Shown: one piece after another, positions 248-41,838 of the stretch
How positions within the stretch are numbered: the first letter of the stretch is position 1
How the letters are laid out: each line of letters opens with the position of its first letter
Sequence record: NZ_CP033797.1
DNA from: a plasmid
Direction: 5' to 3' (one strand)
DNA: 53,756 nt
Program-made: the position numbers and the translations under genes
The notes under the pieces: model-generated
Told to the model about the DNA's origin: nothing
Databases searched by the model: none
The model's input: the letters and a program-made list of their open reading frames with translations, nothing else

Positions 248-249
248 TA

Positions 250-1106: not shown

Positions 1107-1125
1107 CGATTCATGACGTGTGAAA

Positions 1126-1967: not shown

Positions 1968-1972
1968 TTTTA

Positions 1973-2060: not shown

Positions 2061-2063
2061 ATT

Positions 2064-2577: not shown

Positions 2578-3116
2578 AGTTGTTTAATTAAGCCGGATAA
2601 CTTTACGAGCTGATCTATGTCCAATCCCCGAATCAGGACTTCATAACCATCACCACGCTCTGTCACATGCCCATTCAAACCATTTACAGCTTTAAACCCT
2701 GTTAACGTTCCGTGCCAGTTTTCAAGCTTAACAAGTTGTGACAACATGCCTTTCAGTATTTGCCTTTCTTCCCGCTTTTTCTGTAGTTTCTTCTCATACT
2801 CTCGCGAAGTTTCAACATCGTGTAATGCATTTATAAGTATTTTCTTTTCAATATCTGCGGCTATCTCTACGGGGTTACGCTGTGGTGATACAGTGCATGT
2901 ATGACATGGACTACGCCAGTTACGGCTATCCACGCTGCCTATGATAGCTAACCTTCCTTTGTCCATTCGAATGTGTACAGAATAATTTTTAAATCGTGGC
3001 GACGTTAGTTTTATACGATATTGACAATCATCCAGCAGGTTTACGCGCCAGCCGTTCCCCAGGATACGGCAGACGATTTCAAAAACAGGCCGATAGAGCA
3101 AGAAAAATGATTTCAT
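2574..3116 (-). CDS. Hypothetical protein (180 aa)
   Basis: ORF in the operon downstream of the dnaJ-like gene. Confidence 0.45.
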   Translation of the reverse strand: MKSFFLLYRPVFEIVCRILGNGWRVNLLDDCQYRIKLTSPRFKNYSVHIRMDKGRLAIIGSVDSRNWRSPCHTCTVSPQRNPVEIAADIEKKILINALHDVETSREYEKKLQKKREERQILKGMLSQLVKLENWHGTLTGFKAVNGLNGHVTERGDGYEVLIRGLDIDQLVKLSGLIKQL

Positions 3117-3159
3117 AAACTCACCTTTAAAGTGTTGGGGGCTTTCGCCCCCGTTTTAA

Positions 3160-3675
3160 CTATGCTCTGTTTTCTACTTTCTGCCTGCCAGCTGCTTTAC
3201 GCTTCCCGGCAGTGCCGTACATCTCGCGGATTTCATCAATACTGTGTTCTTTTCGGTTCCAGCGGCTCTTATGTTCTTCAGGACGGTAAAACCACTGTTT
3301 TTTCTTCGCTGCCCATTTGCAACCTATTTCTTTCAACGTGTCTTTATGTTCGCGAGTTTCCCCACTAATCCAGATCCAGTTGCCTATAACTTCATAAACT
3401 AAACCTGATAACCCGGTGAGTACGTTCAACACGCTTTCCATATCGTCACCGTAGTTATAGTGTGCGTTTTCATCGGTGCTCTGAAACGAATTAATTTTAT
3501 CGATGTTTGCCATCAGAAAATCAAAAGCAGCGTTTACAGCTTTCATCAGTTCAGCGCCTAACGGATTACGGTCTGGATGATATTTTAAAGCCGCTTTTTT
3601 ATATGCAGCCTTGATATCCTTTTCAGTCAATTCACCAGATAAACCAAAGACGTTTAATGCTTCCTGAATGTTCAT
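3160..3675 (-). CDS. J-domain (DnaJ-like) protein (171 aa)
   Basis: KAAYKKAALKYHPDRNP carries the HPD J-domain motif; first gene after promoter-module copy 2. Confidence 0.75.
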   Translation of the reverse strand: MNIQEALNVFGLSGELTEKDIKAAYKKAALKYHPDRNPLGAELMKAVNAAFDFLMANIDKINSFQSTDENAHYNYGDDMESVLNVLTGLSGLVYEVIGNWIWISGETREHKDTLKEIGCKWAAKKKQWFYRPEEHKSRWNRKEHSIDEIREMYGTAGKRKAAGRQKVENRA

Positions 3676-3681
3676 GCTTTT

Positions 3682-3769
3682 CTCCCGCCCGTTTGGGCTG
3701 CTGGATTAAGGTAGGGAGCCATTCCCAACCAACAAATTCAGTATACCATCATATGATGGTAATACAATT
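3682..3769 (-). promoter_or_regulatory. 88-bp promoter/operator module, copy 2, with palindrome TACCATCATATGATGGTA (3744..3761)
   Basis: Direct repeat of 1973..2060; upstream of the dnaJ-like operon. Confidence 0.7.
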
Positions 3770-3780
3770 GTTTTTGATTG

Positions 3781-3830
3781 CTTTGTAGTGTAAAGACACT
3801 ATAAAGACAGCGAATGCTTTACGCTGTTGA
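3781..3830. repeat. Cluster of AAAGAC/GTCTTTA motifs (same motif family as the par centromere repeats)
   Basis: gtaaagacactataaagacag...ctttacgctg resembles the repeats at 8385..8450 and 9140..9300. Confidence 0.4.
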
Positions 3831-4870
3831 ACCGTGTTTCAAAGAGGCGCGAACTGTTGTCACATTTTGCATACTCGTTACATCGCGCCGGGGACGTTCG
3901 CCAGTATTGGCGAACCAACAAGCCTGGATATGAGCAATAACCTCCTCTCCCCTGCTAAGCCAATTTCTGACTATCAGACGGCGTTTAGCCTGTCGCAGTT
4001 AGCGCGTGAGCTGGCGAACGGTACGCCGGGGCAGTGTGAAGCACTGGCGCGGGGCGCTGTATCTGCGCGTTATGAGGTGCGTTAGCAGCGCATTACGTGG
4101 CGAGTAGCTGAAACCAATTGATGCCTGACGAACTCTGACAGCAAAAAAACAATCAGGCCGCCAGCTGCTGGGCGACAATAGCCAGCAAAAAGTAACTGAC
4201 CATCATTGCCGGTCGTAAAATTTTGCTGGCATCCCATGTAAGCGGAGTTCACTCCTGATCAATTTCCAGCTTGTTACGTTAAACGAGCTGTATGCTGTTC
4301 TAAGCGGGTTTACCCCGTTCTGCTGAACCCTCGTCGGGGTAAACTCACTTAAAACGCCTCTGAGGGCTTCTGAGTGCGTTTTAGTGCTGGATCTAAAAAG
4401 GATCACTCCACGATCCTTTCCCGTTTTTTACGCATAACTTAAAAATCATCTTACTTTTAAGTTATCTTTGCTCAATGTATCTCTTTGATTTAAAAGTTTA
4501 AAACATCTATTTTTTTTTAGTTAAAATTCTTCTCACCTTTTCTCAGACCTAGGTGATCGAGAAACGGCACCGCTCGCCGCAGTCTTTGGCTGAGGCGTAC
4601 CGCAGGAGCATAGCGACGAGGAACGAACAGCCAAAGCGAGGAAGCGGAATATCTGCTGCTCTGACAGAGAGCACGTACACTCAATGGCTAAAATATGAAC
4701 ACCTTATGTTTTGCTCCAACTTCCGAAGGTTAGAAGGATCTATCCTCTGGGTTTATGCTGAGTTATCCACAGGTACTGTGCATTAAAAGCCTTATATATA
4801 TTTTCTTTTCTTAAAGATCTTAAAGAATTAGAGGTTTTTAATTATCTGATATATATAGGAAAAATAAGCT

Positions 4871-5002
4871 AAACATGATGGTGGATGCGATGAAACATGA
4901 TGATAAATGCGATTAAACATGATGGGAAATGCGACGAGGCATGATGAAAAATGCGTTTTACCATGATGGAAAATGCGACGAAACATGATGGAAAATGCGA
5001 CG
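4871..5002. repeat. Gamma-ori-type iteron array: six contiguous 22-bp iterons (AAACATGATGNNNNATGCGANN) preceded by an A+T-rich segment (about 4790..4870)
   Basis: Tandem 22-mers aaacatgatggtggatgcgatg / aaacatgatgataaatgcgatt / aaacatgatgggaaatgcgacg / aggcatgatgaaaaatgcgttt / taccatgatggaaaatgcgacg / aaacatgatggaaaatgcgacg. No spacers, so not CRISPR. Confidence 0.85.
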
Positions 5003-5125
5003 CTATTAACAGCTTGATTTAAAAGCTTCATATCTGAAGATCTTTGTATGTGAAGTCATCAAGGCGTGCGTTTTATGAGCACATTGGCTGGAGCCTGTCT
5101 GGTTTCGCTGAGTCGCTAAGCGGAC

Positions 5126-5169
5126 AAACATGATGATAAATGCGAATAAACATGATGGAAAAAATAACT
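5126..5169. promoter_or_regulatory. Two further iterons in the pir promoter region (autoregulation operator)
   Basis: aaacatgatgataaatgcgaat and aaacatgatggaaaaaataact, followed by an inverted half-site tcatcatgtt, about 45 bp upstream of pir. Confidence 0.6.
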
Positions 5170-5211
5170 TCATCATGTTAATGTGGCTACTCTTTAGTGA
5201 GAGGTTTTATG

Positions 5212-6111
5212 AGAATAAAAGTTATGAAAAATGTAACTGAAAAAACGAAGATTCGTCACAGGAACGAAATAAATAAAACTCTGGCTCAACTTCCATTGGC
5301 AGCCAAAAGGGTTCTGTGTCTGGCCTTGGTTTATGTTGATCCAAAAAAAGAAATGAAAATGGGGCAGACCTTTAAAATTCGGGCTGATATGTACGCAAAG
5401 ATAGCCGGAATACATCCTTCTGTTGCTTATAAGCAAGTCAAGGAAGGTGCTGAATTGTTAAATGTCAGTAAACTTTCCCTTACGGGGAATGATATGAAGG
5501 AATTAGCAAAGGAACTTGGTCTTCCAAATTCAAAAAACATCGACCGCCTTGACTTATCGATTACTGATTATTGTGCATATAACCAAAATGAGGGATTTGT
5601 AATTCTAAGATTTGGATACACTATCACGCCTTATATATCAAGATTAATTGGGGCGGAAAATAAATTCACAACACAACTAATTGCGTCCTCATTAAAATTG
5701 AGAGGGGAGTATTCGTGGTCATTGTATCAGTTAATTAGGAAGAATTACTCAACGTTTAAAGGGAAAAATTCATTTAGCCTATCTCTGGAAGAGTTGAAGG
5801 ATGAACTTATTGCTTACAATATTGATGATAATGGAGATATTATATATAAGTATCCAGAGTACCCTATATTCAAGCGAGAGGTAATAAATAAGGCTATCAA
5901 AGAAATAAAAGAAAAAACTGAGGTGACTTTCCTGTCTTGCGTTGTCGATGAAAAAGAAGGAAGGAAAGTTAGTAAGTTACGATTTGAATACGCTATAGAT
6001 GAAGATAAATTTGCCGAATCAGGCTCTGATTTTCCTATAGAGTTATTTGACGATGATGATTCTGCTTTTCTTGAGGAGTTTGATAGAAAAGTACCACCCA
6101 AAAAGAAATGA
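5212..6111 (+). CDS. pir: Replication initiator pi protein (R6K Pir-like, iteron-binding Rep)
   Basis: MRIKVMKNVTEKTKIRHRNEINKTLAQLPL... recognised as R6K pi (MRLKVMMDVNKKTKIRHRNELNHTLAQLPL...). Start chosen after the GAGAGG RBS; sits downstream of the iterons. Confidence 0.9.
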   Translation, partial: RIKVMKNVTEKTKIRHRNEINKTLAQLPLAAKRVLCLALVYVDPKKEMKMGQTFKIRADMYAKIAGIHPSVAYKQVKEGAELLNVSKLSLTGNDMKELAKELGLPNSKNIDRLDLSITDYCAYNQNEGFVILRFGYTITPYISRLIGAENKFTTQLIASSLKLRGEYSWSLYQLIRKNYSTFKGKNSFSLSLEELKDELIAYNIDDNGDIIYKYPEYPIFKREVINKAIKEIKEKTEVTFLSCVVDEKEGRKVSKLRFEYAIDEDKFAESGSDFPIELFDDDDSAFLEEFDRKVPPKKK

Positions 6112-6119
6112 GGTGAGTT

Positions 6120-6563
6120 ATGGCTAAAATCTATGATTTCCCGCTGGGCGCAGAGCGAGACAAACTAAGGCATGAAATTGACAGGGAACGTAAAAAGCAA
6201 CGTAGAGTAAAAACGGGCAATCCGTTTATCCGACACGTTAAATGGTTCTGTTTTTATCTTCGCCTTGTCACAGCTGGCGCACTGCATGTAGTTTCTGTTA
6301 TTACCCTGGCTGTATTGGGGGCTTTCAGTAAGGCTATTTTCTGGATTGGCGGGATGGTTTGTGTCGTCACATGGTTTCACCTTGAGCGCCAGTTCTGGAC
6401 ACCACATAATTTCACGATCCCTGTTATCGTAAGCCTGTGGGGATTGAGTTTGTTTGCCACTCCCCTAATGGAGCTGATAAACAAAAAAATGCCGTGGTAT
6501 CGTCTCCTGGTTCCTGATGCGAAAGAAGCAAGCACGGAGACACCTGATGATGAGTCGCGGTGA
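6120..6563 (+). CDS. bis: Bis protein (beta-origin replication accessory, R6K-like)
   Basis: Immediately 3' of pir as in R6K; MAKIYDFPLGAERDKLRHEIDRERKKQRR with a hydrophobic C-terminal half. Confidence 0.6.
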   Translation: MAKIYDFPLGAERDKLRHEIDRERKKQRRVKTGNPFIRHVKWFCFYLRLVTAGALHVVSVITLAVLGAFSKAIFWIGGMVCVVTWFHLERQFWTPHNFTIPVIVSLWGLSLFATPLMELINKKMPWYRLLVPDAKEASTETPDDESR

Positions 6564-6649
6564 ACCAGTCGCAAGCTGCCTGCTTGCACTGTGCATGTTT
6601 GCCTTATACCATCGGTTTAGCATAGTGCGCGATGTGAGTTCTTTTCAAT

Positions 6650-6742
6650 GCGATGCAGGACAGGGCAAACGCCGCAAAATGCTAGCATTTTACTCGTTTG
6701 CCCGGTGACCTACAGTCGGTTCTTGTTGGAGGATTTATGAAG
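6650..6742. repeat. Inverted-repeat copy B (oriT-like), supplying promoter, RBS and start codon for the 6737..7093 gene
   Basis: Matches the reverse complement of 793..886. Confidence 0.85.
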
Positions 6743-7093
6743 TTTGATGTAAAAGAGTTTATTGATGATAAATACGCAAAAGCTATTAATATTTTAAAGG
6801 AAAACCTCAAAGAAAACTATCATGTTTTTTATGGGATCAGATTGAGTGAAATTCTTTTTCCTGCCAGTGAGTATGGCTCTGATGCTTTCTTTAAAGAATT
6901 TGAATCAATTAACAGTGTAATACTACCATTAGTAATCTTTGATTTAACACAACGCAAGCCAATGATGATTATCAGCTTCGATAAGATATCTGATGCCAGT
7001 TTGTTGGCAGGGACGGGTATTGTGGTTCTTGAATGTATGGCCCTGTCCGATCTTCTGACAAATGATAATATTGCTATTTTATATAAAATCTAA
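6737..7093 (+). CDS. Hypothetical protein (118 aa), transcribed outward from IR copy B
   Basis: ATG after GGAGG inside the IR; stop codon overlaps the stop of the convergent 7090..8067 gene. Confidence 0.5.
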   Translation: MKFDVKEFIDDKYAKAINILKENLKENYHVFYGIRLSEILFPASEYGSDAFFKEFESINSVILPLVIFDLTQRKPMMIISFDKISDASLLAGTGIVVLECMALSDLLTNDNIAILYKI

Positions 7094-8067
7094 GAATCTT
7101 CTCTCAGTTTATACTTTCTGCTAGGGTCACCAAGTGTTATCGAGTTTAGTTCATGTGAGTAATGGTGTGTATGGTAATGCGCTGGATTTTTCAGATAATC
7201 GGGGAATGATATTATTTTCCCGCAACTAATTGCAGAATAGAACCAGTTACGGAAAGTTTTGTCATTTGTTTTTAGTGCATGTTTTGGAATAAAAACTAAT
7301 TTAATACTGGAAACGTAATTGACAGGATTAAGTATAGTATATCTGTTTTCTACAAACTCTTTTAAAGCATCTGTAAATTCATATTCTGATGTATAAATTT
7401 CTGTCTTATTACTAGGGCGTTTTATCTGGAATATGAATGAATAGTAGTTCTGGTCAAGTATTTCAACGGTGTTTGAATTTATGCTCAGTTGTTCAATAAC
7501 CGCTTCTCTTTTATACTCTAATTTGTCTCTGACAGATTGATATACAACCATTGCTGCATGATGTGAACCACCACTGTTTGAAGCTACATAGCGGTCAAGC
7601 CAGGAGTAATATGTAACATTGATAGAATCGCGAGGGTTGAAACCTTCATGCTCAATGTGCCATATATTATCCTCCCAGTCTGAAATGTTTTCAGCTTTCA
7701 GGTTTTTGGCGGGATACATCCCCTCCCCCCATGAGTAAAGGTTTTTGAACCAACTACCATTTATTACCTTGTTCCATCCACAACCGAAACTTTTCGAGGC
7801 AGTCAGAGACTGTAATTTGTTAAAATCGAAATCCAGAGAGTGTTTTTTATCTGTAGTTATTATGTTACTCAGAATCTCAGCCAGATCCCTGTCAATATAT
7901 CTCAGTGAGTATTCGCTAAATATATTTTCAAGCTGCAATATGGTGTCTGCATCCGCTGTAGGTTCAACTAACTTAATATCAGCAAGATTTTTAAACGTTG
8001 CAGCGGTCAGCTTATGGTGATCTGTCAACCTGTAGAGTTGACAGATTAATTCGGTTAAATATCTCAT
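7090..8067 (-). CDS. Hypothetical protein (325 aa)
   Basis: Long ORF downstream of the par operon; no recognisable domain. Confidence 0.5.
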   Translation of the reverse strand: MRYLTELICQLYRLTDHHKLTAATFKNLADIKLVEPTADADTILQLENIFSEYSLRYIDRDLAEILSNIITTDKKHSLDFDFNKLQSLTASKSFGCGWNKVINGSWFKNLYSWGEGMYPAKNLKAENISDWEDNIWHIEHEGFNPRDSINVTYYSWLDRYVASNSGGSHHAAMVVYQSVRDKLEYKREAVIEQLSINSNTVEILDQNYYSFIFQIKRPSNKTEIYTSEYEFTDALKEFVENRYTILNPVNYVSSIKLVFIPKHALKTNDKTFRNWFYSAISCGKIISFPDYLKNPAHYHTHHYSHELNSITLGDPSRKYKLREDS

Positions 8068-8091
8068 AGATTATCATCCATGCTTCTATGG

Positions 8092-8373
8092 TTAGAATTT
8101 TGCTGATTCCAGTAACCAGTGGTTTTTCTGGTTTTCGTCCAGATTATCAAATGCGGCCAGCGCTGCCTTTAGAACGGTTGTCCTGCTCTGTCCTGTTCTG
8201 ATCGCCTCAGCCTCTAGGATATCGTCAAAGGCTTCAGAAAGCCGGAAATTAACCAGCTTCGCTTTACCTGGTGTTGGCTTCCTTGTGGCTCCAGAGATAA
8301 AGCGTGCTGTTTCTGCGTTTGTTGCCTGTTCTTCTGTCGCCGGAACGGTTGGCGTTTTCAATTTTAAAGCCAT
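8092..8373 (-). CDS. Ribbon-helix-helix partition protein (ParG/CopG-like centromere-binding protein)
   Basis: KLVNFRLSEAFDDILEAEAIRTGQSRTTVLKAALAAF is an RHH fold; downstream of the Walker ATPase and flanked by GTCTTTA repeats. Confidence 0.6.
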   Translation of the reverse strand: MALKLKTPTVPATEEQATNAETARFISGATRKPTPGKAKLVNFRLSEAFDDILEAEAIRTGQSRTTVLKAALAAFDNLDENQKNHWLLESAKF

Positions 8374-8469
8374 ACAAAATCCTCATTAAAGACACTATCT
8401 AAGTGTAAATACTATAGTGTCTTTATGTTGTCTTTACAATGTAAATTTCTATGTATTCGATTGAAATAT

Positions 8470-9132
8470 TTAGATTATCCCTATTTCCTGGGCGACTAAT
8501 TCTATCTGTGCTTTTGCTGTTGTCAGACTGGAGGCGCGGCTTACATCATGTACCCCTGCCCCTTCATTGCAGGCGCTTTCAAACACATCCAATTCTGACA
8601 TGCGGTTTTTTAGTGGCTGTATCCAGACGTCGTCTGAGCGTAATAATTTATCCAGCTCAATAGCGGCTTTTCTGTGGCGTGGCTTGCTTGGGTTTATTCT
8701 GGTAAGTAGTACCCAGGGTTGCAGGGCTGCGTTTGATTTCTGAGCCATGCGGACTTTCTCGGTTACGCTCGTCAGTGTTTCACTTTCAAAGTCAGATGAC
8801 GCTTTAACCAGAGTTATCATGATATCTGACACAGTCAGTGCGCTACGGAACTCAAGGCTGTCATGTCCGGGGCAGTCAACGATCAGAACATCGCACAGCT
8901 TGCTCAGGCGGTTAATCTCTTTGCTTACATTACCGTATGCCTCGTAGACTGGTACTGTTGGGAGGCTATTCTCCCTGCGTTTTTCATTCCAGCTGATAAG
9001 GTCATTGTTCTTATCGGTTTTAAGGATGATTACCGATTTTTCTCTGTTTGCCAGCATAGATGCTGTGTTAGCCGAGTAGGTGCTTTTCCCTACCCCGCCC
9101 TTATCTGAAACCACCAGTAAAATTTTTCCCAT
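8470..9132 (-). CDS. parA: ParA/ParF-family partition ATPase
   Basis: MGKILLVVSDKGGVGKST is a deviant Walker A; 220 aa. Confidence 0.8.
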   Translation of the reverse strand: MGKILLVVSDKGGVGKSTYSANTASMLANREKSVIILKTDKNNDLISWNEKRRENSLPTVPVYEAYGNVSKEINRLSKLCDVLIVDCPGHDSLEFRSALTVSDIMITLVKASSDFESETLTSVTEKVRMAQKSNAALQPWVLLTRINPSKPRHRKAAIELDKLLRSDDVWIQPLKNRMSELDVFESACNEGAGVHDVSRASSLTTAKAQIELVAQEIGII

Positions 9133-9139
9133 TTCCGCA

Positions 9140-9300
9140 TCCTCGTATTTACGATGTAAAGCTTTTCATGTCTTTACGGTGTCTTTAACTTATAAAGATA
9201 TAGGCGTCTTTATAGTGTCTTTATACTCTTTATGTTTTACGATGTAAATAGAGTATAAAGATAAGTATGTCTTTATGTGTGCTTTACATGGTAAAGCTCA
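9140..9300. repeat. Centromere-like repeat array (GTCTTTA/TAAAGAC/GTAAAG motifs) upstream of parA
   Basis: More than 10 copies of the motif in both orientations between parA and res; a smaller set at 8385..8450 sits between parA and the RHH gene. Confidence 0.6.
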
Positions 9301-9450
9301 TTATGGCTTTACGTTTGATTTACACCGTCTTTCTGATGTAACTGTAGGTGACGTGGTCACATAATGAATCATTTCTTTGGTTCGGTTTGAGTATGCCTTT
9401 AAAATACCATGCGAAACAGGTACTATATGGTTATGCTTTAATAACCTAAA

Positions 9451-10116
9451 TTGAACTGGTTCGACATTGTGACTCATACCGTACCGCAAAGCTTTGTCCG
9501 GGCTTATTTACGCGCCACAACATCTGAACAAGACGCTTCTCGCGCACTCGCTGCGATCGATAGCTTTGCTGATGAGCGTGGCCTTAACATCTGCAATTAC
9601 TACATCGAGAATGAATCTGGTTCGCGGCTCGACCGACCGGAATTATTCAGACTGCTGAACGACTGCCGACAGAACGATATTCTCCTCATTGAAGATGTTG
9701 ATCGGCTTTCACGCTTAACTGGTGAAGACTGGAACAGCCTGAAGAAGTTGATTCGCCAGAAGGATATTCGAGTGATGGCCATCAACGTACCGACAACCTG
9801 GATTGCTTCAGCGAGCCATGATTTTGATAGTCGCATGTTTGCTGCAATCAACGATATGTTGCTTGATATGCTGGCTGCTGTGGCTCGTCGTGATTATGAA
9901 CAACGCCGGGAACGTCAAAGGCAGGGGATTAATAAAGCTCAAAAGGAGGGAAAATATAAGGGGCGTCAGGTCAATCAGGCTCGATACGATGCAATTAATC
10001 GGTTGCTCGATAGCGGTAGTTCTTGGAGCCAGGTTCAGAAAATTATGGCCTGTAGTCGAGGGACAATTAGTAGTGCTGTAAAATCGAGGGAAGATAAACG
10101 TGCTTTGAGTAAGTAG
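9451..10116 (+). CDS. res: Serine recombinase (resolvase)
   Basis: N-terminal YLRATTSEQD (resolvase Ser motif region) and C-terminal HTH; paralogous fragment at 26745..27002. Confidence 0.8.
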   Translation: MNWFDIVTHTVPQSFVRAYLRATTSEQDASRALAAIDSFADERGLNICNYYIENESGSRLDRPELFRLLNDCRQNDILLIEDVDRLSRLTGEDWNSLKKLIRQKDIRVMAINVPTTWIASASHDFDSRMFAAINDMLLDMLAAVARRDYEQRRERQRQGINKAQKEGKYKGRQVNQARYDAINRLLDSGSSWSQVQKIMACSRGTISSAVKSREDKRALSK

Positions 10117-10177
10117 TTACAACACACAAGAAAATGTCTACCCGTCCTAGCTGGTTGGCTTGTGTGATTGTTCAATA

Positions 10178-33060: not shown

Positions 33061-33516
33061 TTACTGTTTATCGTCAGCAGAACCAGACGGCTCTTTCTTG
33101 ATAAGAAAATCGTCCAGAGAACGGCCAGCCTTTAACGCTTCATCAATCGGTTTTGGCGAACGTCCACGGCCAGACCAGAATTTAACTTCGCCATTTTCTT
33201 CAAACTGATACTTTGGCGGTGCTTTCGGCAATTTACTCTTACGTGCATTTGGCGCATCGTCGGTCAGACCAAGCAACTCTTCAGGAGAAAAACCTTCCCC
33301 AGCGATGAGCTGAAGCAATTCCTGACGTTTTTTCTCACGTTCCTGACGTTCTGCGGCTTCACGTTCAGCATCTTCTCGCCGCTCTTCGATAACAGCGTTC
33401 AACTTTTCCTGCATTTCCAGCAGTTGCTCAAAGCTCGTTTCACGCGCAAAGACACGGACAGAACGAATATTCGTCAGAAGTCTTCGGGCTGCATCAAACG
33501 TTTCATTATCGCTCAT
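33061..33516 (-). CDS. hns: H-NS-family nucleoid protein (plasmid-borne)
   Basis: C-terminal ...YQFEENGEVKFWSGRGRSPKPI DNA-binding motif; coiled-coil N-terminus. Confidence 0.85.
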   Translation of the reverse strand: MSDNETFDAARRLLTNIRSVRVFARETSFEQLLEMQEKLNAVIEERREDAEREAAERQEREKKRQELLQLIAGEGFSPEELLGLTDDAPNARKSKLPKAPPKYQFEENGEVKFWSGRGRSPKPIDEALKAGRSLDDFLIKKEPSGSADDKQ

Positions 33517-33534: not shown

Positions 33535-33744
33535 TTATCTGACGTGTTGCCAGACTGATGCGGGGATTTTATCAAACAGTTTATTCATGATTATCTCAGC
33601 CAATCGGTGATCAGCAGCAGAATAAAATGTTACCAGCTCTCCAGCGGTAAGGCTGCGTTCATTTTTTTCTATAACTTTCTCTAAGGTTTCCCGGTGTTGG
33701 CACTTTCTTAACTGGAAAAGCCAGTCTTGTCTGGTTTTCACCAT
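33535..33744 (-). CDS. hha: Hha/YmoA-family modulator
   Basis: ...[17 protein letters not shown]...[28 protein letters not shown] resembles Hha. Confidence 0.85.
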
Positions 33745-36065
33745 TATTTTTTCCTGAACTCAAAACCAAGTTTGCCTGTAGATTTATCCTGCAAGGTAAC
33801 TACAGCGTCAAATTTTTTCCCGGCTTTGCTGGTAAACCCTTTAATCTCGCTGGTTTTACCTTTTTTTATCACCGTTTCAACCTGATTTTGTGTCAGTTTC
33901 TTGCCGGAAAACTCAGACCAGATTTTAAACTCACACCCCGTACAGAAAAAGCCTTTTGGCCTGATTAAAATCTCTTTGTTACAGGAAGGGCAGGGGACAC
34001 CAAGACGGGCGCTTGCCCCCTCAGAAGCCTGTTTCTCTGTAACAGGTTTTCCATCTTTATCCGGGAATGATGTTTTACACTCAGGATAACATGAGCATCC
34101 CCAGAAAAAGCCATTCTGCCCCTTACGTTTGCGCAGAAAACCTTTGCTACAGACAGGGCAGGGCGTGGCATTAGACGAAATGTTAATCCCGTTTTTATCC
34201 AGATCGTCGATTAAACCGCGAATATAATCGTCGTTGTCTCTGATAAAATCCTCAACGGTCAGTTCGCCGGATTTGATTTGCGCCTGTTTTTCAGCCCATA
34301 TTGCCGATATGTTGGGTTTAATCACTTCAGGCGGAAGAGCAGCGCAGAACTCCTGCCCCTGTTTTGTTGTTTTCCATACCAACTCAGAGTAGCCCTTTTC
34401 TTTCTCTATCGAGATAAGCCCGGTATTGGCAGCCAGTTTTTCAAGGATACCCGCACGGGTAGCTTCTGTGCCGATACTGCCCCGGTCACTGCTCCCCTCG
34501 TCTTTGGCTTCAAGCGCTTTTCTCAGAGCCGGATCATCGATAAATTTTGCCGCACTGGTCATCGCGGCCAGTAACGTTGACTCCGTAAAATAGCGGGCTG
34601 GAGTTGTCTTTTTCTTGTCCACGTCAGCCGACTCACACAGGCCGCTGTCATTAAATTTCAGAGTCGATAAATCAAAACCGCCCGTTCCGGCATCTTCGGC
34701 ATCGTCCTCTTCATCATTGTCTTTACCCAGCGCTTCCCAGCCCTTTTGTATCAGAACGCTTTGTGTGGCCGTGAAGGTATCACCTTTAATATCGAAGTGA
34801 ATTTTTGTTTTGTCACGGATGGCATCCGGGTAAAACAGACCAATGAAATAGACGGCCACCAGGTTATAGACGTTCCGCTCTTTCTCACTGAGCTGAATAC
34901 CGGCTCCGCTTTTCGTCGTCGGAATAATGGCATGGTGTGCCTCGATCTTACTGGCGTTAAAGGCTTTATGCTTTTGTTCCTTCTCCATATCTGCGGTTGC
35001 CGACGCCAGTTCCGGCATTGTGGCCGCGATAGCGACTGCAATATCCCCGGCCTGATAAAAATGCTCATCTGAAAGATAGCGGTTGTCAGAGCGGGGATAG
35101 GTCAGCAGCTTGTGTGTTTCATACAGCCCCTGCATCACATCCAGCGTTTCCTTAGCCGTATAACCGTATCGTTTTGCACAAAGTTGCTGAAGCGTGGACA
35201 AGTTCAAGGGCAGCGGCGGTTTGGTATTTTCCGGTTTAGTTGTCGCGATCGTCACGATAGCGTCCTTACCCGCTACCCGTTCGGCAATATGCGCGGCCTG
35301 TGCTTCTGAAATCAGGCGTTTTTTATCGTCGATCTGATCGCCGTCCGTTGTCTGATATTTCGCCTTAATATGATTCCCGTTCATCTTCAGACTGGCGAAA
35401 ACATCGTAGTAAAAGCTTTCAGTGTGATTCTGGTTTGCCAGCGTGCGCATGTTCACCAGTCCGAGAACCGCACTCTGTACACGACCAACGTTCAGAACAC
35501 CGTCATATCCCTTCTCACGGCCTTTGAGCGTACAGCCTCGCGTCATATTATAACCAAAGTCCTGATCGCACAGAGAACGTGCCAAAGCGCTATCTGTCAT
35601 GCCGCGAAATTTTTCGTTAGGCTGCATGTTTGCCAGCGATTTTTGCACTGGCGCAAGGTTGAGATCGGCAACCAGCAGCCGCTGGACGGGCTTCTTGTTT
35701 CCGGCATAACCTAAAATCTCATCAACCAGTAAACACCCTTCATCGTCGGGGTCGCCAGCATGAACAATGCTATCGGCTTTTTCTATCAGCGACAGAATAA
35801 TGCGGGTCTGTGCTTCAGATTCAGGTTTTAGTTTGTACGTGGGTGGATAAACGGCTTTAATCGGTAAATCGCTGAATCGCCAGTTAGCATATTTTTCGTC
35901 ATAATCCTGCGGGTCATAAAGCTCAAGCATATGACCATAACACCAGGTAACAGCATCAGCGCCGTGTTCAAAATAACCGTTTTTCTTCTCCGTATTAGGG
36001 TTGCCACCTAATCCTTCGAAAATCGCTTTTGCTAATGATGGTTTTTCAGCAATAAAAAGTCTCAT
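33744..36065 (-). CDS. topB: DNA topoisomerase III
   Basis: [15 protein letters not shown]... Toprim; ...[12 protein letters not shown]...; C-terminal zinc ribbons. Confidence 0.9.
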
Positions 36066-36066
36066 A

Positions 36067-36723
36067 TTAATGGCTCCTGTCAATACAATCTTTTTGTACT
36101 AAGGACTGAATTTCGCCCACTGCCGCAACGATAATTTCTTGTGCATTATCTTTGTCAAAGGCGTTAACTATTATTGATAGCTGGTCACTGACATCCCTTG
36201 CTAATGAAAAAGTATCTTCATTGTCATCATCCTCCCAGACATATCGGTTTTTCAATAATGACTCCACGCTGCCTGTTTTACTCGTTGTTGTGCAGGTGAA
36301 AGAACCATCTTCTAATCGCCGGGTTTCTATTTCATACTCAAACACTGGCTTAAAGTTTTCCAGAGTGTTAGAAGTAAATGCAACAGCAATAACTCGCTTC
36401 CCTCTGGCGCTCATGATTTTTAAAAAATCATACAGAAATGAATCATTTATGTTCTGTGAAAATTCTACACTATCGAGAATGACAGTGGATTCCTTCGCAT
36501 CCAGAATATGATCCAAGTAAATATCTTCATTAGTACGGCAAAGGAAATGCAAGTCTGGATAACATGTTGCACCGCACATTTTTGAAAAGTCAAAGTAACG
36601 CGAATCGGGGATAGTTGCTTCTTCGAGTAGTTTACTTTTTCCTGTCCCCGTCCTCCCATGAACCAGAACATGCCCTTGCGATTTTTTCAGGGCGTCTTGT
36701 GCTGTTTTCTTATCATGTTCCAT
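36067..36723 (-). CDS. Small P-loop NTPase (218 aa), uncharacterised; gene C of the 3-gene operon
   Basis: Walker A VHGRTGTGKSKLL; Walker-B-like TVILDSVE; stop 1 nt from the topB start. Confidence 0.6.
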   Translation of the reverse strand: MEHDKKTAQDALKKSQGHVLVHGRTGTGKSKLLEEATIPDSRYFDFSKMCGATCYPDLHFLCRTNEDIYLDHILDAKESTVILDSVEFSQNINDSFLYDFLKIMSARGKRVIAVAFTSNTLENFKPVFEYEIETRRLEDGSFTCTTTSKTGSVESLLKNRYVWEDDDNEDTFSLARDVSDQLSIIVNAFDKDNAQEIIVAAVGEIQSLVQKDCIDRSH

Positions 36724-36725
36724 TT

Positions 36726-37382
36726 TTAATCCTCCAGCTGAAGTGCGCCAGTAGCAAAGGCAGCTTCAACAATTGCGGAAAGTTGATGCGTTGGCATATA
36801 ATCTTTGTAATTAATCCATACTCGTTTAATTTTCCCATCCACTTCTACGGCACGCTGTCTCCTTTCATTACAATCACTATCCAGCCATACACCATTGAAT
36901 AAAGGAGAACTGTTATTCTTAAAATAGACTTTTTTATCTTCATCAGACATGCAGTTGAGCATATGCGCGAGATAACGAGATACAAGCGCGAAACTTCTTA
37001 CCGTATGGTTCTTATCGTCAGGTTCAACGTTTTTATTATCGAACTCTATAATGCCGCCTTTGTGGATTCTGAATTCCCCAAATGTCATAACATGCGCACG
37101 TTCTGGTTTTGTCGGGAATGTCCATGTAGCGTAAAAAGAGTATACCCCGCGCTCTTTTTCTATCCACGCCTCCGCAACGAAGCAAGCTTCGCTACCATCC
37201 AGACAAGCTGAATAGCGCGGAGGTACACAAAACGAATCACTGTCGTGAGAAACAGGCTGCGTGTATTTTCCAAGAATGAAGGTGTCACCGACTTTCATAT
37301 CCCTGATTGAACGCTGAAACCAGAGCGGCATACGGCAGTAACGCATAAAATCATAAACCGTCTTTATTGAACTCACTTTCAT
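36726..37382 (-). CDS. Hypothetical protein (218 aa), gene B
   Basis: ORF 2 nt upstream of gene C; no recognisable domain. Confidence 0.5.
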   Translation of the reverse strand: MKVSSIKTVYDFMRYCRMPLWFQRSIRDMKVGDTFILGKYTQPVSHDSDSFCVPPRYSACLDGSEACFVAEAWIEKERGVYSFYATWTFPTKPERAHVMTFGEFRIHKGGIIEFDNKNVEPDDKNHTVRSFALVSRYLAHMLNCMSDEDKKVYFKNNSSPLFNGVWLDSDCNERRQRAVEVDGKIKRVWINYKDYMPTHQLSAIVEAAFATGALQLED

Positions 37383-37393
37383 TATTGGCTCCT

Positions 37394-38167
37394 TTACCAG
37401 CCATACGGATAAGCAGGAAACGTCAGCCAGCTTTCAAGCAGGTATTCGGTTTCTTTGTTCCAGTAAAAATAAAAACCCCTGGGATTGAAGAAAACGGAAT
37501 AACCGTCAATCTCACCAATTTGTTCTGCTTTATTGAACAAAGGATTGACATAAAAATCATCTTCGAAAGAATCAGTGAGATTAGACGCTACGAAATCCTT
37601 ACGAGATAGTTTTGTTATTTTGTCACGCTCATCATCAAAGTTAATGCGTTCCATTGTATGGGGATTGATGCCAAAACCTACCGTTCCGCCAGTGAATGCT
37701 CTGTGTTCAAAATTACCCCATGTAAGTTCATCTAATGAATCGACATGTTTTTGTGTGATTTCCAGAAAGGATTGTTTAACTGGTTCCTTATCATCATAGT
37801 TAGCTTTCTCCGGGAAACTGATAAGAAACTCAGCCGTTTCACCCTTATCATGATTGAATAAAGGGTTTAACTCCTCCTCATTTTCAAATTCTTTCTTAAA
37901 TGCTTCAATATCACGCACGAAACATGACATATAGTAATATCTGTCTGTCTGGAACAACCCTTGTAAATCTTCACCATGAAGCAAAGCAAACTGGCAAATA
38001 CGATCATACAAATCCATTGCCTTTTGATAATCATCGTTAGGGACGATTAACTTTACCTCAGCCGCGCTTTCTGTCATGCCTGGTGTAACATAAACATCTG
38101 CACTTACAAGCAAGTTACCAACACATAAGCGGTTATTGAAACGTTCTTTATCGGATTCAGTCATCAT
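37394..38167 (-). CDS. Hypothetical acidic protein (257 aa), gene A
   Basis: ORF 14 nt downstream of nuc and 11 nt upstream of gene B; aromatic-rich C-terminus. Confidence 0.5.
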   Translation of the reverse strand: MMTESDKERFNNRLCVGNLLVSADVYVTPGMTESAAEVKLIVPNDDYQKAMDLYDRICQFALLHGEDLQGLFQTDRYYYMSCFVRDIEAFKKEFENEEELNPLFNHDKGETAEFLISFPEKANYDDKEPVKQSFLEITQKHVDSLDELTWGNFEHRAFTGGTVGFGINPHTMERINFDDERDKITKLSRKDFVASNLTDSFEDDFYVNPLFNKAEQIGEIDGYSVFFNPRGFYFYWNKETEYLLESWLTFPAYPYGW

Positions 38168-38181
38168 CGTTTCATTCCTCT

Positions 38182-38652
38182 TTATTTACTATGCCGCCAT
38201 TCCCACGGCGGCACTGGTTGACTGTCAGCCCACAGGCCGCGCTTTTGTTCCTGTGCTGCCCTTTGCAGAGCCGGTAATGAATTATCGCTGTTGTACTTGT
38301 CGTAAACCCATGCTGCACCAGATTGCACCATAAAGCGGTTGGCCTCTGTGCCGTTCGCCGTGAACACACGCCCGATAATACGCCCGTAGCGATCTGTCTG
38401 CGTATACGTCACCGTGACGGGCAGCGCTGCAACCAGGCCTTTAAGCTGATTGGTTGACCAGCGCCCGAAAGCCTGTTTCTTTTCCGGTGCATCGATGTTT
38501 GCCAGGCGAATCCTGACGGGCTTTTTATCCTGCAATACTTCGATGGTGTCACCATCGAGCACACGGATAACTTTTCCCTGAATTTCTGCTGCACACAACG
38601 TAGCTGGAAGCACGACTACAAAAAGAGAAAAAGCATAAAGAAAACACTTCAT
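38182..38652 (-). CDS. nuc: Secreted thermonuclease (SNase/micrococcal-nuclease-like)
   Basis: Signal peptide MKCFLYAFSLFVVVLPATLCA; ...RIRLANIDAPE... catalytic motif. Confidence 0.85.
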   Translation of the reverse strand: MKCFLYAFSLFVVVLPATLCAAEIQGKVIRVLDGDTIEVLQDKKPVRIRLANIDAPEKKQAFGRWSTNQLKGLVAALPVTVTYTQTDRYGRIIGRVFTANGTEANRFMVQSGAAWVYDKYNSDNSLPALQRAAQEQKRGLWADSQPVPPWEWRHSK

Positions 38653-38984
38653 CGTTTCTTTTCCTCCCACATGATAGTTCCTATCTTAAACAGTGAGAAA
38701 ATCACGATGATTGAAACACCAACAACTACCAACATAGGAATAATCAAGCTATACAAATTAATTGTATAATTAAAAAAACGCTCAAAGTAATAGTATTCAG
38801 ATTCAGATGTACTTCCCCATAAGATAACGGCGATACGATAAAACCCATAAACCAATACAGGGAACCAAGCCATAAAAAAGAGTAGCCGAGTAAACACTGA
38901 GGCAACCGTTTTAGAGTATCCTATGAAAATAAACAGAATATCACTGACTCTTCCTGCTGCTGATCCCATAATAATCTTCGCCAT
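38649..38984 (-). CDS. Small membrane protein (111 aa)
   Basis: Three predicted transmembrane helices. Confidence 0.45.
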   Translation of the reverse strand: MAKIIMGSAAGRVSDILFIFIGYSKTVASVFTRLLFFMAWFPVLVYGFYRIAVILWGSTSESEYYYFERFFNYTINLYSLIIPMLVVVGVSIIVIFSLFKIGTIMWEEKKR

Positions 38985-38989
38985 AATCT

Positions 38990-39193
38990 TTAATCCTCTT
39001 TATCCTGTTTCTCAACGTCACATTCATCCAGAAAAATTTTATCATTGCAATTAACCAGAGAGATGTAAGCGGTACAGTTTTCGATAATCGCATTTACTGT
39101 CTCATTACCTGTATTTTTCAAATCACTTAGATTCTGAGTAACCGTTACTGTTTGAATATTATGACGTGACATTTTTAAAATCATTTTATCCAT
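38990..39193 (-). CDS. Hypothetical protein
   Basis: ORF only. Confidence 0.3.
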   Translation of the reverse strand: MDKMILKMSRHNIQTVTVTQNLSDLKNTGNETVNAIIENCTAYISLVNCNDKIFLDECDVEKQDKED

Positions 39194-39261
39194 AACTAAC
39201 GTCCTTCGGTTGTTCAACCCCGCAAATCTCAGATTAAAATCTGAAATTTGCGGGGTTATCG

Positions 39262-39600
39262 TTATTCCTGGAATGAGCGACCATAGCGCTGAATAATCAT
39301 TTCCAGATTGTCTTTATTGATTACAGCGCCGTCACAGGTATTTAAGATACTTTGCCTAAGCCTTGCTGTGGCTTCAGGATTATAGTAGGGGGTAAAAACC
39401 CGGACATTGAAAAAGCGCTGATTAACTGTCTGACAGGCTGGCTGTGTATCCCCCTGTAATTTTCCGGCCATGCAGGTTAACAATTCACATGGATCACCCG
39501 TCTGGTTTAACCCGTCAGTGTGGTTATGCTTTTTGGCTAAAGCAGGCGTTGTCAACACAGCAAGAACGAGCGGAACTATAAGCACATTGCGAACATTCAT
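39262..39600 (-). CDS. Secreted protein (signal peptide)
   Basis: MNVRNVLIVPLVLAVLTTPALA. Confidence 0.4.
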   Translation of the reverse strand: MNVRNVLIVPLVLAVLTTPALAKKHNHTDGLNQTGDPCELLTCMAGKLQGDTQPACQTVNQRFFNVRVFTPYYNPEATARLRQSILNTCDGAVINKDNLEMIIQRYGRSFQE

Positions 39601-39604
39601 AATG

Positions 39605-40000
39605 TCATCCTTTCTGAAGATAGATATTGATGGATTTAACACCAAATTCATCACGCTTATATCGGTACTGGATTAATCCATATGCACCGTTAGACCTAAG
39701 CCAGTTTTTTGCAGTAAAGAAGTCTTCACCCCGGCTACTTTCAATAATAATTGAGTCTGAATGAGCAACAGCATAGAAAACCGCATCATCGTAAAGACGG
39801 TTCTCAGGAGTAAAGTTTTTTATAACCTTTATCCAGGATGAATTAACACGGTCAGATTTAATTACCGTAAAAGTAGGTTGCCAGTCCATTAACTGTGAAT
39901 TCATTGTTTCCGGGTTTTTCTTCCAGTCAACCTGTGGGGGTTCAGGAGGTGATGAACAGGCAGAAAGAAAGACAAAACCAGCCAGCACTATTCTTTTCAT
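39605..40000 (-). CDS. Lipoprotein
   Basis: MKRIVLAGFVFLSAC lipobox. Confidence 0.5.
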   Translation of the reverse strand: MKRIVLAGFVFLSACSSPPEPPQVDWKKNPETMNSQLMDWQPTFTVIKSDRVNSSWIKVIKNFTPENRLYDDAVFYAVAHSDSIIIESSRGEDFFTAKNWLRSNGAYGLIQYRYKRDEFGVKSINIYLQKG

Positions 40001-41838
40001 AATAAAACCTCAGATTCAAGCTCACCTACGGAAAGCATTTTTTCTTTTGAAGGGTATTTAAGCCCCTTAACACCAAAGATATTTTTTGTCTTGTTAAGAC
40101 TGGACGTTAAAGCAGCCAGCTTCGGACTTACCAGCATAAGCCTGTCCATAAAATACGAATCAAGGTAGTAAAGGGCTTTTTTGGCTTTAACAGGGTTCTC
40201 ACCCTTCAGGATGATAAACTCCTCTGAAAACTCCAGCGTTCCCAGCTCCTGTGGAAGTACCAGAGCGCGTTGAGCGTCACTTTCGGAATTGCTTTTTGAT
40301 GTCGAACGACCGCTCGTTTTACTGGAACCAGTAGACTTAGCGGTTGTATAACCAAGCTTCTCTGAAATCTTTTTAGCATCATCCTCTTCACTGACAGCAT
40401 AGATAATCCGGCAAGGGTGCGCACTCATCAGAGTCTTAGCTCCCTCTATACCGTAGATTTCATTAAGCTGGCTGATATTCTGATAAATCGTCAAAAGCTT
40501 GAGTTTAAAGCCTGCAATGTACCCCGAACCTTTTTTAATAATCGGCATATAACCAATTGAAGGGAACTCATCTAGAAACATTAAACAGTCATGCTTAAGC
40601 GTTGGGTCAAAATCCGGGTTTTCCCTCAATGTGACTTCAACGACAAAGTTAAAGAACAGGTTCAGGAAGTCATAGGCAAGGGACATATCCTCCGCATTCA
40701 CGCCAACATAAATAGAGATATCTTCCCGGCGCAGCTGGCGAAGGTCAAAATCATTACCGTCAGTACATTTTCTGACGGTAGGGAGGTAAAACAGACTCAT
40801 TTTTTTACGGAATGAACCATCGATACTTGAACGCTGTTCGTCTTCAGTTTCGTGGTACTCACGGATTTTCGTCAATGCATCCCGTAAGTGAAACAATGCC
40901 GTTTCATCTAATCCCGCTATCCCCTCAAAGTCTTCACGGTTAGCCAGTACGTTTTCCCGATCAATATTGCTGTAAAGGTCAACAACAGAACCGATTGAGA
41001 AAATGGGTTTAAGATTGAATTCGTTAAGCCAGTCAGGAGCGTAATTGATAAAAAAGTGAAGCAGTTTTGCAAGGCCAGTCCAGTATTGCCCGGCAAGGTT
41101 GTTAAAGTGGGCTTCGGCTCCCGTCATACCATAAGACGGGAACAGAATTTCTATCAGCTTCAGTAAGTCTTTAGCGCCACTCTCAGCTTTTAAATCAATA
41201 TAGAAAAGCGGGTTAAACTTATGCGTTTTACTGTTAAAGGGGTCTAACAAAAAAACTTTATTCTGGAGAATCACCTCGCGAACTTTACTGGTGATTTTCC
41301 ACAGTTCCTGTTTTGGGTCTAAAGCAATAAGAGAGTGCTTTCTTACCAGAAGATTAGGAATTCCTATTGCAGCACCTTTACCCGCGCGTGTACCTGCACC
41401 CAGCGAAACAAAATCAGGAGCCGTATACCAGAGATATTTTCCCTTGTAAGCGCCGACAAGTATATCGTCGTCATTCTCTTTCTCCCATTTTAGCAGCTTT
41501 GATTTTTTTAAATCATCATCGCTGGCAAATTTCGCATCACCATAGAGAGAAAAATCTTTTTTATTCAATTGCCAGATAATAAAAACGGGAACGATAACTG
41601 AGGCAGCTAAACCAGAAAGAAGAGCGGGCATTGCCGTAATTCTGATATCTGACCGTATATTACTTTCTGTCATGAGTCGCCAGAGTAACATAGAGTCGAA
41701 GTTCTTCCATATGAACAGTGGCGTTTTACCATTAAAAAAGTAGACAGCAACAGAACCTGCATAATACGTAAAAAGACACATAACAAAACCGATAAAGAGC
41801 CACTGCCCTTTATCAGGGAGTTTAAGAGACATGATCAC
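39997..41838 (-). CDS. taxB: Type IV coupling protein (VirD4-like) TaxB
   Basis: N-terminal transmembrane segments; Walker A GAGTRAGKG; 613 aa. Confidence 0.85.
   Translation of the reverse strand: MIMSLKLPDKGQWLFIGFVMCLFTYYAGSVAVYFFNGKTPLFIWKNFDSMLLWRLMTESNIRSDIRITAMPALLSGLAASVIVPVFIIWQLNKKDFSLYGDAKFASDDDLKKSKLLKWEKENDDDILVGAYKGKYLWYTAPDFVSLGAGTRAGKGAAIGIPNLLVRKHSLIALDPKQELWKITSKVREVILQNKVFLLDPFNSKTHKFNPLFYIDLKAESGAKDLLKLIEILFPSYGMTGAEAHFNNLAGQYWTGLAKLLHFFINYAPDWLNEFNLKPIFSIGSVVDLYSNIDRENVLANREDFEGIAGLDETALFHLRDALTKIREYHETEDEQRSSIDGSFRKKMSLFYLPTVRKCTDGNDFDLRQLRREDISIYVGVNAEDMSLAYDFLNLFFNFVVEVTLRENPDFDPTLKHDCLMFLDEFPSIGYMPIIKKGSGYIAGFKLKLLTIYQNISQLNEIYGIEGAKTLMSAHPCRIIYAVSEEDDAKKISEKLGYTTAKSTGSSKTSGRSTSKSNSESDAQRALVLPQELGTLEFSEEFIILKGENPVKAKKALYYLDSYFMDRLMLVSPKLAALTSSLNKTKNIFGVKGLKYPSKEKMLSVGELESEVLL

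Follow-up and report, generated by a model that had tools for sequence, protein, structure and literature searches.

What do three genes of no recognised family do between a nuclease gene and a topoisomerase gene in the transfer region of an IncX5 plasmid, and do they form one system? The question is raised by sequence record NZ_CP033797.1, a stretch of 53,756 nucleotides (nt) that is called the window throughout and represents a circular IncX5 plasmid linearised within the relaxase gene taxC. Three minus-strand open reading frames (ORFs), here named A, B and C, lie in its ORF list between nuc and topB. A sequence-only reading of the locus had described them accurately as three tightly packed ORFs running in the same direction as nuc, topB and hha, with neighbours as given; the ORF list agrees with its positions exactly, and the gaps amount to 11 nt between A and B, 2 nt between B and C and 1 nt between C and topB. 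That reading had also taken the three genes for an ATPase with two partner proteins acting as one system, and this did not survive comparison with other plasmids, in which the modules occur alone or in other combinations. The explanation to which we give somewhat better than an even chance treats A, B and C as three accessory genes, independent of one another and horizontally exchangeable, and places them in a variable cargo slot where the IncX transfer operon has its distal end. The three genes are as follows:

37394..38167, minus strand: gene A, 257 amino acids (aa), acidic, predicted cytoplasmic
36726..37382, minus strand: gene B, 218 aa, neutral, predicted cytoplasmic, single compact domain
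36067..36723, minus strand: gene C, 218 aa, isoelectric point (pI) 4.9, predicted cytoplasmic

Genes A and C are composite, and their parts are needed for the comparison of plasmids:

37688..38167, minus strand: A N-terminal domain (residues ~1-160), a module also found alone or fused to other tails
37394..37687, minus strand: A C-terminal domain (residues ~161-257), an aromatic-rich beta-meander that ends ...ESWLTFPAYPYGW
36274..36723, minus strand: C N-terminal mini P-loop domain (residues 1-150), with sub-threshold Pfam matches
36067..36234, minus strand: C tail, 55 aa, acidic (residues 164-218 and the stop codon), a conserved module on unrelated heads

Slot synteny was established from a tblastn table over 30 fetched loci and from annotated contexts, and it shows that the interval from virD4/cag12/trbM/nuc to topB is a variable slot in IncX-like plasmids. 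The slot holds A, a DUF6012 gene and a 131-aa ORF in pKP13d, A only in p8_SCLZS62, and a frameshifted remnant of A with an 81-aa ORF in the IncX1 plasmid pEC596-tetX4. B is the only occupant in pXH1508-4, is joined by DUF6012 in an Erwinia pyri plasmid, and is found with several ORFs and DUF6012 in Providencia p15793C_57. Pantoea and Arsenophonus plasmids carry A and B with no P-loop, and in Serratia quinivorans (L006) A and B are followed by a mini-C made of 27 N-terminal aa and the tail. The domains of A separate as well: the N-terminal domain stands alone (127-128 aa) beside DUF6012 in the IncX-like plasmid pSTW0522-51-5 and, as a homologue, inside an IncF tra operon between traU and traP, and in Citrobacter sp. 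NCU1 (L011) the C-terminal domain lies upstream of topB without its N-terminal partner. Vibrio pVPA3-1, IncF pKPYL1 and Xylella pXFAS01 also have B but neither A nor C, and IncI2 plasmids and one IncP-like plasmid have the P-loop alone.

PLSDB has 304 records with A, most of them from Escherichia, 184 with B (63 from Vibrio, 17 from Xylella and 7 from Escherichia) and 50 with full-length C, and the complete trio is found in 47, so that obligate co-occurrence across plasmids was not observed. Nor does conservation throughout IncX hold: not all IncX subgroups have the genes, which in IncX1, in pKP13d-type and in other IncX-like plasmids are missing, have been replaced or have decayed. In IncX1, gene A is a frameshifted, unannotated remnant of ~300 bp in two reading frames (62-aa and 57-aa ORFs); in pEC596-tetX4 (L019) the remnant lies at 4962-5354, and the same pattern is seen in about 150 PLSDB records. 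Because counts and host distributions differ sharply, and A and B show no homology to each other, the best-supported account is that of three independent accessory genes which are neighbours by chance in IncX5.

The modules have also been exchanged between backbones. In one Serratia plasmid B is 93% and the tail 94% identical, as against 38% for TopB; in L016 the tail is 85% identical and TopB 37%; in L003 the values are 89% for the A C-terminal domain, 62% for the A N-terminal domain and 37% for TopB. As such identities show, the modules (both domains of A, B, the mini P-loop and the tail) recombine freely between diverged backbones. The N-terminal domain of A evolves faster than the C-terminal one (62-67% versus 89-91% identity in L003 and L006). 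It was also observed that the first ~20 residues of two Arsenophonus A homologues (P0047 and P0051) start MNLYIAEKxSxAKDIA, which equals the conserved TopB N-terminus and suggests that recombination once took place at the 5' end of topB and left this scar.

A, B and C are genuine genes under purifying selection, because their ratios of non-synonymous to synonymous substitution (dN/dS; Nei-Gojobori method, against diverged homologues) range over all modules from 0.05 to 0.28, each family forms 36-82 clusters, and the AlphaFold2 models of A and B are confident. The ratios were 0.10-0.28 for the A N-terminal domain, 0.05-0.17 for the A C-terminal domain, 0.07-0.19 for B and 0.14-0.25 for the C tail, and for comparison 0.07 for TopB and 0.08-0.22 for nuc. 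In public data the clusters at 90% identity numbered 63 for A, 82 for B and 36 for C, nearly all on plasmid-like enterobacterial contigs of 30-60 kb, and none of them carried a Pfam domain or an informative name. Conservation of the families extends across orders, at identities as low as 28-40%. That the three genes are decaying or meaningless ORFs filling the room between nuc and topB, as the decay of A in IncX1 and the small effects on transfer of deleting conserved hypothetical genes in IncX3 could be taken to mean, is hardly credible, and for the copies in this window it is refuted by the dN/dS values and the fold confidence, besides that conservation across orders.

The claim that A and B match no known family was upheld by family, profile and structure searches. 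As single proteins they gave nothing usable in Pfam, NCBIfam, PADLOC or PHROGs, a Pfam scan of every member of both alignments found no consistent family, and neither sequence nor profile comparison with the PDB gave a match. Modelled by AlphaFold2 with the family alignment, A (pI 4.5, net charge -23) has two domains, an alpha/beta N-terminal domain and the aromatic-rich beta-meander, with a mean predicted local distance difference test (pLDDT) of 91.8 and a predicted template modelling score (pTM) of 0.77. Its acidic and aromatic-rich character suggests binding to proteins rather than to DNA. In P0179 the C tail is carried by an A-like N-terminal domain (hhalign probability 97%), and A-N-like heads on the tail were recognised in P0168 and P0055 by motif and sequence inspection.

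B was modelled in the same way as one compact domain (pLDDT 87.4, pTM 0.86), and the best E value of a structure search against BFVD was only 0.08. A and B would be orphan-fold proteins. Homologues of B are widespread: one of 45% identity lies at the distal end of an IncF tra operon, in the order traI-traX-finO-dsbA-ORF-B-DUF2726-phospholipase D (PLD) nuclease, and Vibrio pVA1-type plasmids carry others (28% identity, 96% coverage) upstream of hns, a coupling protein gene, mobC and a topoisomerase gene. In Xylella pXFAS01 the homologue stands beside a 1495-aa zincin/ArdC-like polyvalent protein and LPD29-domain proteins. DUF6012 (196 aa, uncharacterised) occupies the same nuc-topB slot in pKP13d and in Erwinia, Providencia and Enterobacter plasmids, and is absent from this window. 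It is not homologous to B; the possibility that B is a diverged DUF6012 was rejected at an hhalign probability of 0.2% (B profile against the DUF6012 protein of pKP13d), and Pfam found no DUF6012 match among 45 members of the B family. A literature search on DUF6012 and on the yfdA ORF of IncI2 plasmids returned no papers.

Only the third gene has a recognisable motif, as the earlier reading had noticed:

36634..36657, minus strand: Walker A motif GRTGTGKS (C residues 23-30)
36472..36486, minus strand: Walker B-like motif TVILD (C residues 80-84)

C satisfies the Walker A pattern GxxxxGK[ST], and within the close family no member departs from G23, T27, G28 or K29; among 19 distant members, 3 have a degenerate motif. 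TVILD is likewise invariant in the close family, with no adjacent catalytic Glu evident, and Asn stands in place of its Asp in three members, the IncI2 homologue, the near-identical cluster representative of the latter (P0195) and P0199. No Pfam or NCBIfam model was matched at its curated cut-off: Pfam gave T2SSE at 20.2 bits (cut-off 24.9), AAA_16 at 20.7 bits (cut-off 32.6) and FtsK, all below threshold, and NCBIfam E values were 0.04 or higher. A profile match to the PDB was confined to the P-loop segment, and PADLOC reported mad8 at P-loop level (20.5 bits, E 7e-5), with weaker HerA and JetC.

Against 1.84 billion representative proteins the C profile found just 39 matches, about 20 of which are stand-alone proteins of 140-165 aa, and these resolve into three modules, namely the mini P-loop, an insert and the 55-aa tail. 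The stand-alone P-loops match AAA_14, AAA_16, nSTAND3 and Sigma54_activ_2, mostly below threshold; one distant relative passes nSTAND3 (31.6 bits, cut-off 27.2). With such AAA+/STAND cores C shares the Walker A motif, a Walker B-like strand that is hydrophobic and closes with Asp, and a 'GKR-hhhh' strand, and it differs from them in scoring below the curated cut-offs, in a family motif of its own (IPDSKYFDF) and in the extra acidic tail. It can be said from the matches of the stand-alone P-loops that the core of C appears AAA+/STAND-like and the family itself an orphan; at low confidence, C is most likely a small nucleotide-dependent switch built on a core of this type.

The closest relatives of C are a 172-aa ORF of IncI2 plasmids annotated 'YfdA' or 'sigma-54-interacting regulator' (37% identity, between virD4 and pilN, about 460 plasmids) and a 140-aa ORF directly before the topoisomerase III gene in the IncP-like plasmid p5_3214 (traI-traG-traF-Ploop-topoIII-traD-traC). 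The P-loop of C and these relatives measure ~150 aa and stand beside coupling-protein or topoisomerase III genes in transfer regions; in L014 the P-loop follows two genes after the coupling protein. Two candidate relatives were rejected, namely the 131-aa protein of pKP13d and the ParA-like 'AAA ATPase' of p8_SCLZS62. Longer paralogues of C (P0154-P0159; 271-275 aa) carry an insert of ~55 aa (YDTLEIEDYMSDESVGRQVTDYRK...) between P-loop and tail, and the same insert is repeated four times in an 850-aa protein (P0216) that matches Pfam Phage_ORF5 (E 7.5e-34); the C of this window lacks it. In Klebsiella IncX-like loci L014 and L015 the mini P-loop is a separate gene (4887-5408) upstream of nuc and the tail is borne by a different 236-aa head (6001-6711) downstream of nuc, so that the two parts of C are split there over two genes of the same operon.

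The tail (...ARDVSDQLSIIVNAFDKDNAQEIIVAAxGEIQSLVQKDC...) has a pI of 4.05 and a net charge of -10, and matches nothing in the PDB or Pfam. It was found on unrelated heads in P0169, P0171, P0176 and P0178, stands nearly alone in P0183 and P0190, and persists in P0183 and L006 despite the deletion of the P-loop. Among the IncX-like contexts examined, the tail-bearing gene is immediately upstream of topB, and in two others it is 0.6-0.8 kb away from it. Synonymous sites have diverged (dS 0.18-2.3) while the amino acids were kept, for which reason the tail is read as a protein module. Two other accounts of its conservation were rejected: linkage to topB, given tails 85-94% identical where TopB is only 37-38% identical, and purely DNA-level conservation, given a dN/dS of 0.14-0.25 with diverged synonymous sites. 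Two further features lie within the coding region of the tail:

36074..36078, minus strand: topB Shine-Dalgarno sequence AGGAG, within the final codons of C, also kept in L006, L014 and L016
36131..36158, minus strand: candidate promoter-like site TTGACA-16-AATTAT, 10/12 matches, ~65 nt before topB, its hexamers just partly conserved in diverged tails

The junction itself reads GAC AGG AGC CAT TAA T ATG AGA, the TAA of C occupying 36069..36067 and the ATG of topB beginning at 36065, which confirms that C ends 1 nt before topB. The ORF lister starts topB at an in-frame TTG at 36083, a 17-nt overlap with C; annotated relatives use the ATG at 36065.

The neighbours of the block in the window are the following:

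38182..38670, minus strand: nuc, a secreted thermonuclease of the staphylococcal nuclease (SNase) family (PF00565, E 1.2e-23), upstream neighbour of A
33744..36065, minus strand: topB, a type IA topoisomerase (topoisomerase III), downstream neighbour of C
33535..33744, minus strand: hha, after topB
33061..33516, minus strand: hns, after hha

The IncX5 order on one strand runs taxA-taxC-NusG/RfaH-like gene-virB1..virB11-virD4-cag12-three small ORFs-nuc and continues as nuc-A-B-C-topB-hha-hns-one ORF-ardR-sprT-like. The backbone (30359-53756 together with 1-10177) is 98.6-99.7% identical to the Serratia plasmid NZ_CP020505.1 (IncX5, MOBP, MPF_T), and 10.2-30.3 kb is a GC-rich accessory insert within it. 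This accessory segment (10200-30350) has a GC content of 52-64%, interrupts an AT-rich backbone, and holds at ~26.8-28.1 kb a second resolvase-like and a ParA-like match. The PLSDB plasmids with full-length blocks of A, B and C, at least 99% identical and always annotated 'hypothetical protein', number 47, and their hosts include Klebsiella, Enterobacter, Citrobacter, Serratia and Escherichia. Between cag12 and nuc there is a hydrophobic 111-aa ORF (38649-38984; grand average of hydropathy 0.91), and a 130-aa ORF at 39262-39654 has an N-terminus that looks signal-peptide-like by eye; the equivalent slot in related plasmids is annotated TrbM/KikA-like. Both ORFs probably encode type IV secretion system (T4SS) accessory proteins of the envelope.

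The earlier reading had all three genes co-transcribed with nuc, topB and hha. The single strand agrees with this, as does a minus strand free of terminator-like sites from 34269 to 40755, and from them co-transcription of A, B and C with the T4SS genes is plausible. Each gene has a Shine-Dalgarno sequence of its own, and promoter-like sites in the region are at chance level (19 found, 19.4 expected). In IncX3 a NusG/RfaH-like plasmid protein antiterminates the long virB operon and the plasmid H-NS represses it (PMC11880322), and in R6K the H-NS homologue Sfx covers the whole transfer domain, sfx having a promoter of its own where topB ends (bioRxiv 10.64898/2026.02.23.707533). No function is given to the genes of the nuc-topB slot in these two reports or in PMC11796372.

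The placement in a stealth or establishment operon found weak support, as the block is the distal end of a T4SS/coupling-protein operon and lies outside the leading region. Leading-region anti-defence genes are found in the first-transferred DNA by the origin of transfer (oriT) and are transcribed toward it (Samuel et al. 2024, PMC11541004). In the window a 98-nt inverted repeat, 97% complementary, is present at 793-890 (just upstream of taxA, ddp1) and at 6645-6742 (by ddp3), and has the look of two oriT-like copies on either side of the segment for replication and the leading region, an arrangement that presumably matches that of R6K. The genes of leading-region type, at 1.6-3.7 kb, run toward the repeat on the taxA side. 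A, B and C are found at 36-38 kb in the T4SS/coupling-protein transcription unit, ~15 kb from the oriT-like repeats, and would not be leading-region genes with respect to either copy, the direction of transfer being taken from MOBP plasmids generally. The same segment holds two copies of a 97-nt direct repeat (1969-2065 and 3678-3774; 91% identity, perfect palindrome ACCATCATATGATGGT). Directly upstream of a 113-aa ORF lies one copy and of a DnaJ-domain ORF the other, both genes being on the minus strand and transcribed in the direction of the oriT-like repeat by taxA; the copies are possibly leading-region promoters or single-strand initiation elements. At least seven 22-bp iterons (4870-5168; consensus AAACATGATGGnAAATGCGAn) precede the replication initiator gene at 5224-6108.

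On this basis the following course of events can be proposed. A, B and C would be made together with the T4SS in transfer-competent donors, under the NusG/RfaH-like antiterminator and H-NS silencing, and, without being essential, would modulate the DNA handling that goes with conjugation, or conflict between plasmid and host or between plasmids. A and B may, at low confidence, be protein-binding modulators of such conjugation-associated processes or of conflict. The acidic tail of C would probably, again at low confidence, be a protein-docking module onto a common partner near the coupling protein or topoisomerase III, and in other plasmids the same tail might tentatively be thought to dock alternative heads, including the A-like N-terminal domain.

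The three genes are probably dispensable individually for transfer, because A is decayed in IncX1 and most comparable deletions in IncX3 have little effect. There, 11 conserved hypothetical genes in or near the transfer region were deleted; two of them proved to be regulators, and the other 9 of 11 deletions changed transfer less than 12-fold or not at all, these genes not having been mapped to the nuc-topB slot (PMC11880322). The conserved hypothetical genes of that plasmid, pHNYX644, resemble A, B and C in being same-strand genes of no assigned function within the transfer operon or at its end, dispensable one by one or nearly so, and variable between relatives; they differ in that the deletions were not of these exact genes, and in that the families described here span several Inc groups and are shuffled at the level of domains.

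Several points weigh against the account of three exchangeable accessory genes and its proposed mechanism. IncX5 itself always has all three genes together (47 plasmids), and a functional interaction specific to this lineage may exist. Co-transcription with the T4SS genes in this plasmid is something that we infer from strand and terminators. The conservation of the tail across two deeply diverged TopB clades argues against a co-evolved binding of TopB, and high tail conservation could largely reflect the recent spread of one cassette. The tail DNA may also be under some DNA-level constraint, because its dS is below that of the adjoining topB and both the ribosome-binding site of topB and the promoter-like site lie within it. 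Not every member of the C family may hydrolyse ATP, as some have degenerate Walker motifs, and in Providencia p1_000369 the P-loop is near relaxosome genes and not near topB or the coupling protein. Finally, a biochemical role has been assigned to A, B and C neither by experiment nor by homology.

Of the competing explanations, the one that fares best is still unlikely, namely that A, B and/or the tail proteins pass through the T4SS into the recipient, where they blunt defences or aid establishment, the tail being a coupling-protein docking signal as in Xanthomonas T4SS effectors. Such effectors, of the XVIPCD type, have a conserved C-terminal coupling-protein-binding domain and variable N-terminal heads. 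The likeness lies in a conserved C-terminal module with interchangeable heads near virD4, and it is one of architecture alone, for there is no sequence similarity and the present tail is short, acidic and placed at the topB junction. Translocation is favoured further by the position of the genes shortly downstream of virD4 in the T4SS operon, by the mosaic, fast-shuffling content typical of conflict loci, by the company of the Xylella B homologue (the zincin/ArdC-like polyvalent and LPD29-domain proteins) and by the faster divergence of the A N-terminal domain. VirB/D4-type T4SS substrates, however, carry a positively charged, arginine (Arg)-rich C-terminal signal. The tail is acidic, and the C-termini of A and B are acidic or hydrophobic, so that no Arg-rich signal was found, a weak test as other signal types exist. 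In this plasmid, moreover, the tail is present only on C, and A and B lack it.

Position outside the leading region also counts against translocation, though it is less relevant to the transfer of proteins, as does the lack of likeness to known anti-restriction or anti-CRISPR families and of phage relatives. Searches of Pfam, NCBIfam and PHROGs for anti-restriction and anti-defence proteins (ArdA, ArdB/KlcA, ArdC, Ocr and others) found none for A or B, and no phage relatives were found in IMG/VR and INPHARED, the P-loop alignment being too diverse for a pattern scan. None of A, B and C gave a match to a known protein of defence or anti-defence, a result by which a role in conflict is neither shown nor excluded. 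The wider form of the idea, that the tail is a portable docking or translocation module which brings interchangeable heads (the mini P-loop, an A-like N-terminal domain and others) to the IncX coupling protein or topoisomerase III, and the slot a reservoir of conjugation-delivered effectors against recipient defences or rival plasmids, with folds not seen before in A and B, is held to be improbable as well.

The one three-component machine of the earlier reading, with C as the P-loop ATPase and A and B as partners in defence, anti-defence or DNA processing, is quite unlikely. It draws on the tight packing (gaps of 11, 2 and 1 nt), on co-occurrence in all 47 IncX5-type plasmids, and on the fusion of an A-like N-terminal domain to the C tail in some plasmids, which is a weak 'Rosetta stone' link. 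Each gene nevertheless occurs without the others in many plasmids, with taxonomic spreads that differ sharply, A is pseudogenised in IncX1, and A and B are unrelated to each other. Among the anti-phage systems of PADLOC-DB 2.0, A and B had no match and C only the P-loop-level one to mad8.

Fertility inhibition or plasmid competition, by factors hitting the coupling protein or relaxosome of a rival plasmid in the manner of FipA, PifC or Osa, is very unlikely. By position the idea has some appeal, as in IncN the T4SS operon ends with nuc and, beside it, fipA (DUF6710) (PMC5696584), and the genes here are likewise dispensable and variable accessory genes, present in the transfer operons of several Inc groups. 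FipA of pKM101/R46 is likewise a cytoplasmic accessory protein of ~200 aa encoded in the distal MPF_T transfer region beside a nuclease gene; the IncN nuclease, however, belongs to the PLD family and the nuc of this window to the SNase family. Homology of A or B to FipA/DUF6710 was rejected at hhalign probabilities below 1% (0.1% for B, 0.4% for A), and Pfam and NCBIfam scans offered no other known family of fertility inhibitors.

For plasmid genomics the finding is an ordinary one, conserved hypothetical accessory genes, with the shared tail as a modest curiosity. It teaches nonetheless that tight gene packing is poor evidence for a multi-component system. IncX plasmids spread carbapenemase and colistin-resistance genes, and the stretch between their coupling protein gene and topB is a recombination-prone cargo slot that holds several plasmid-specific families without a Pfam model, A and B being also without a structural neighbour. 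These families make a concrete list of candidates for factors of plasmid-host or plasmid-plasmid interaction, and the tail, if it were truly a docking or translocation signal, would offer a way to find proteins delivered by conjugation.

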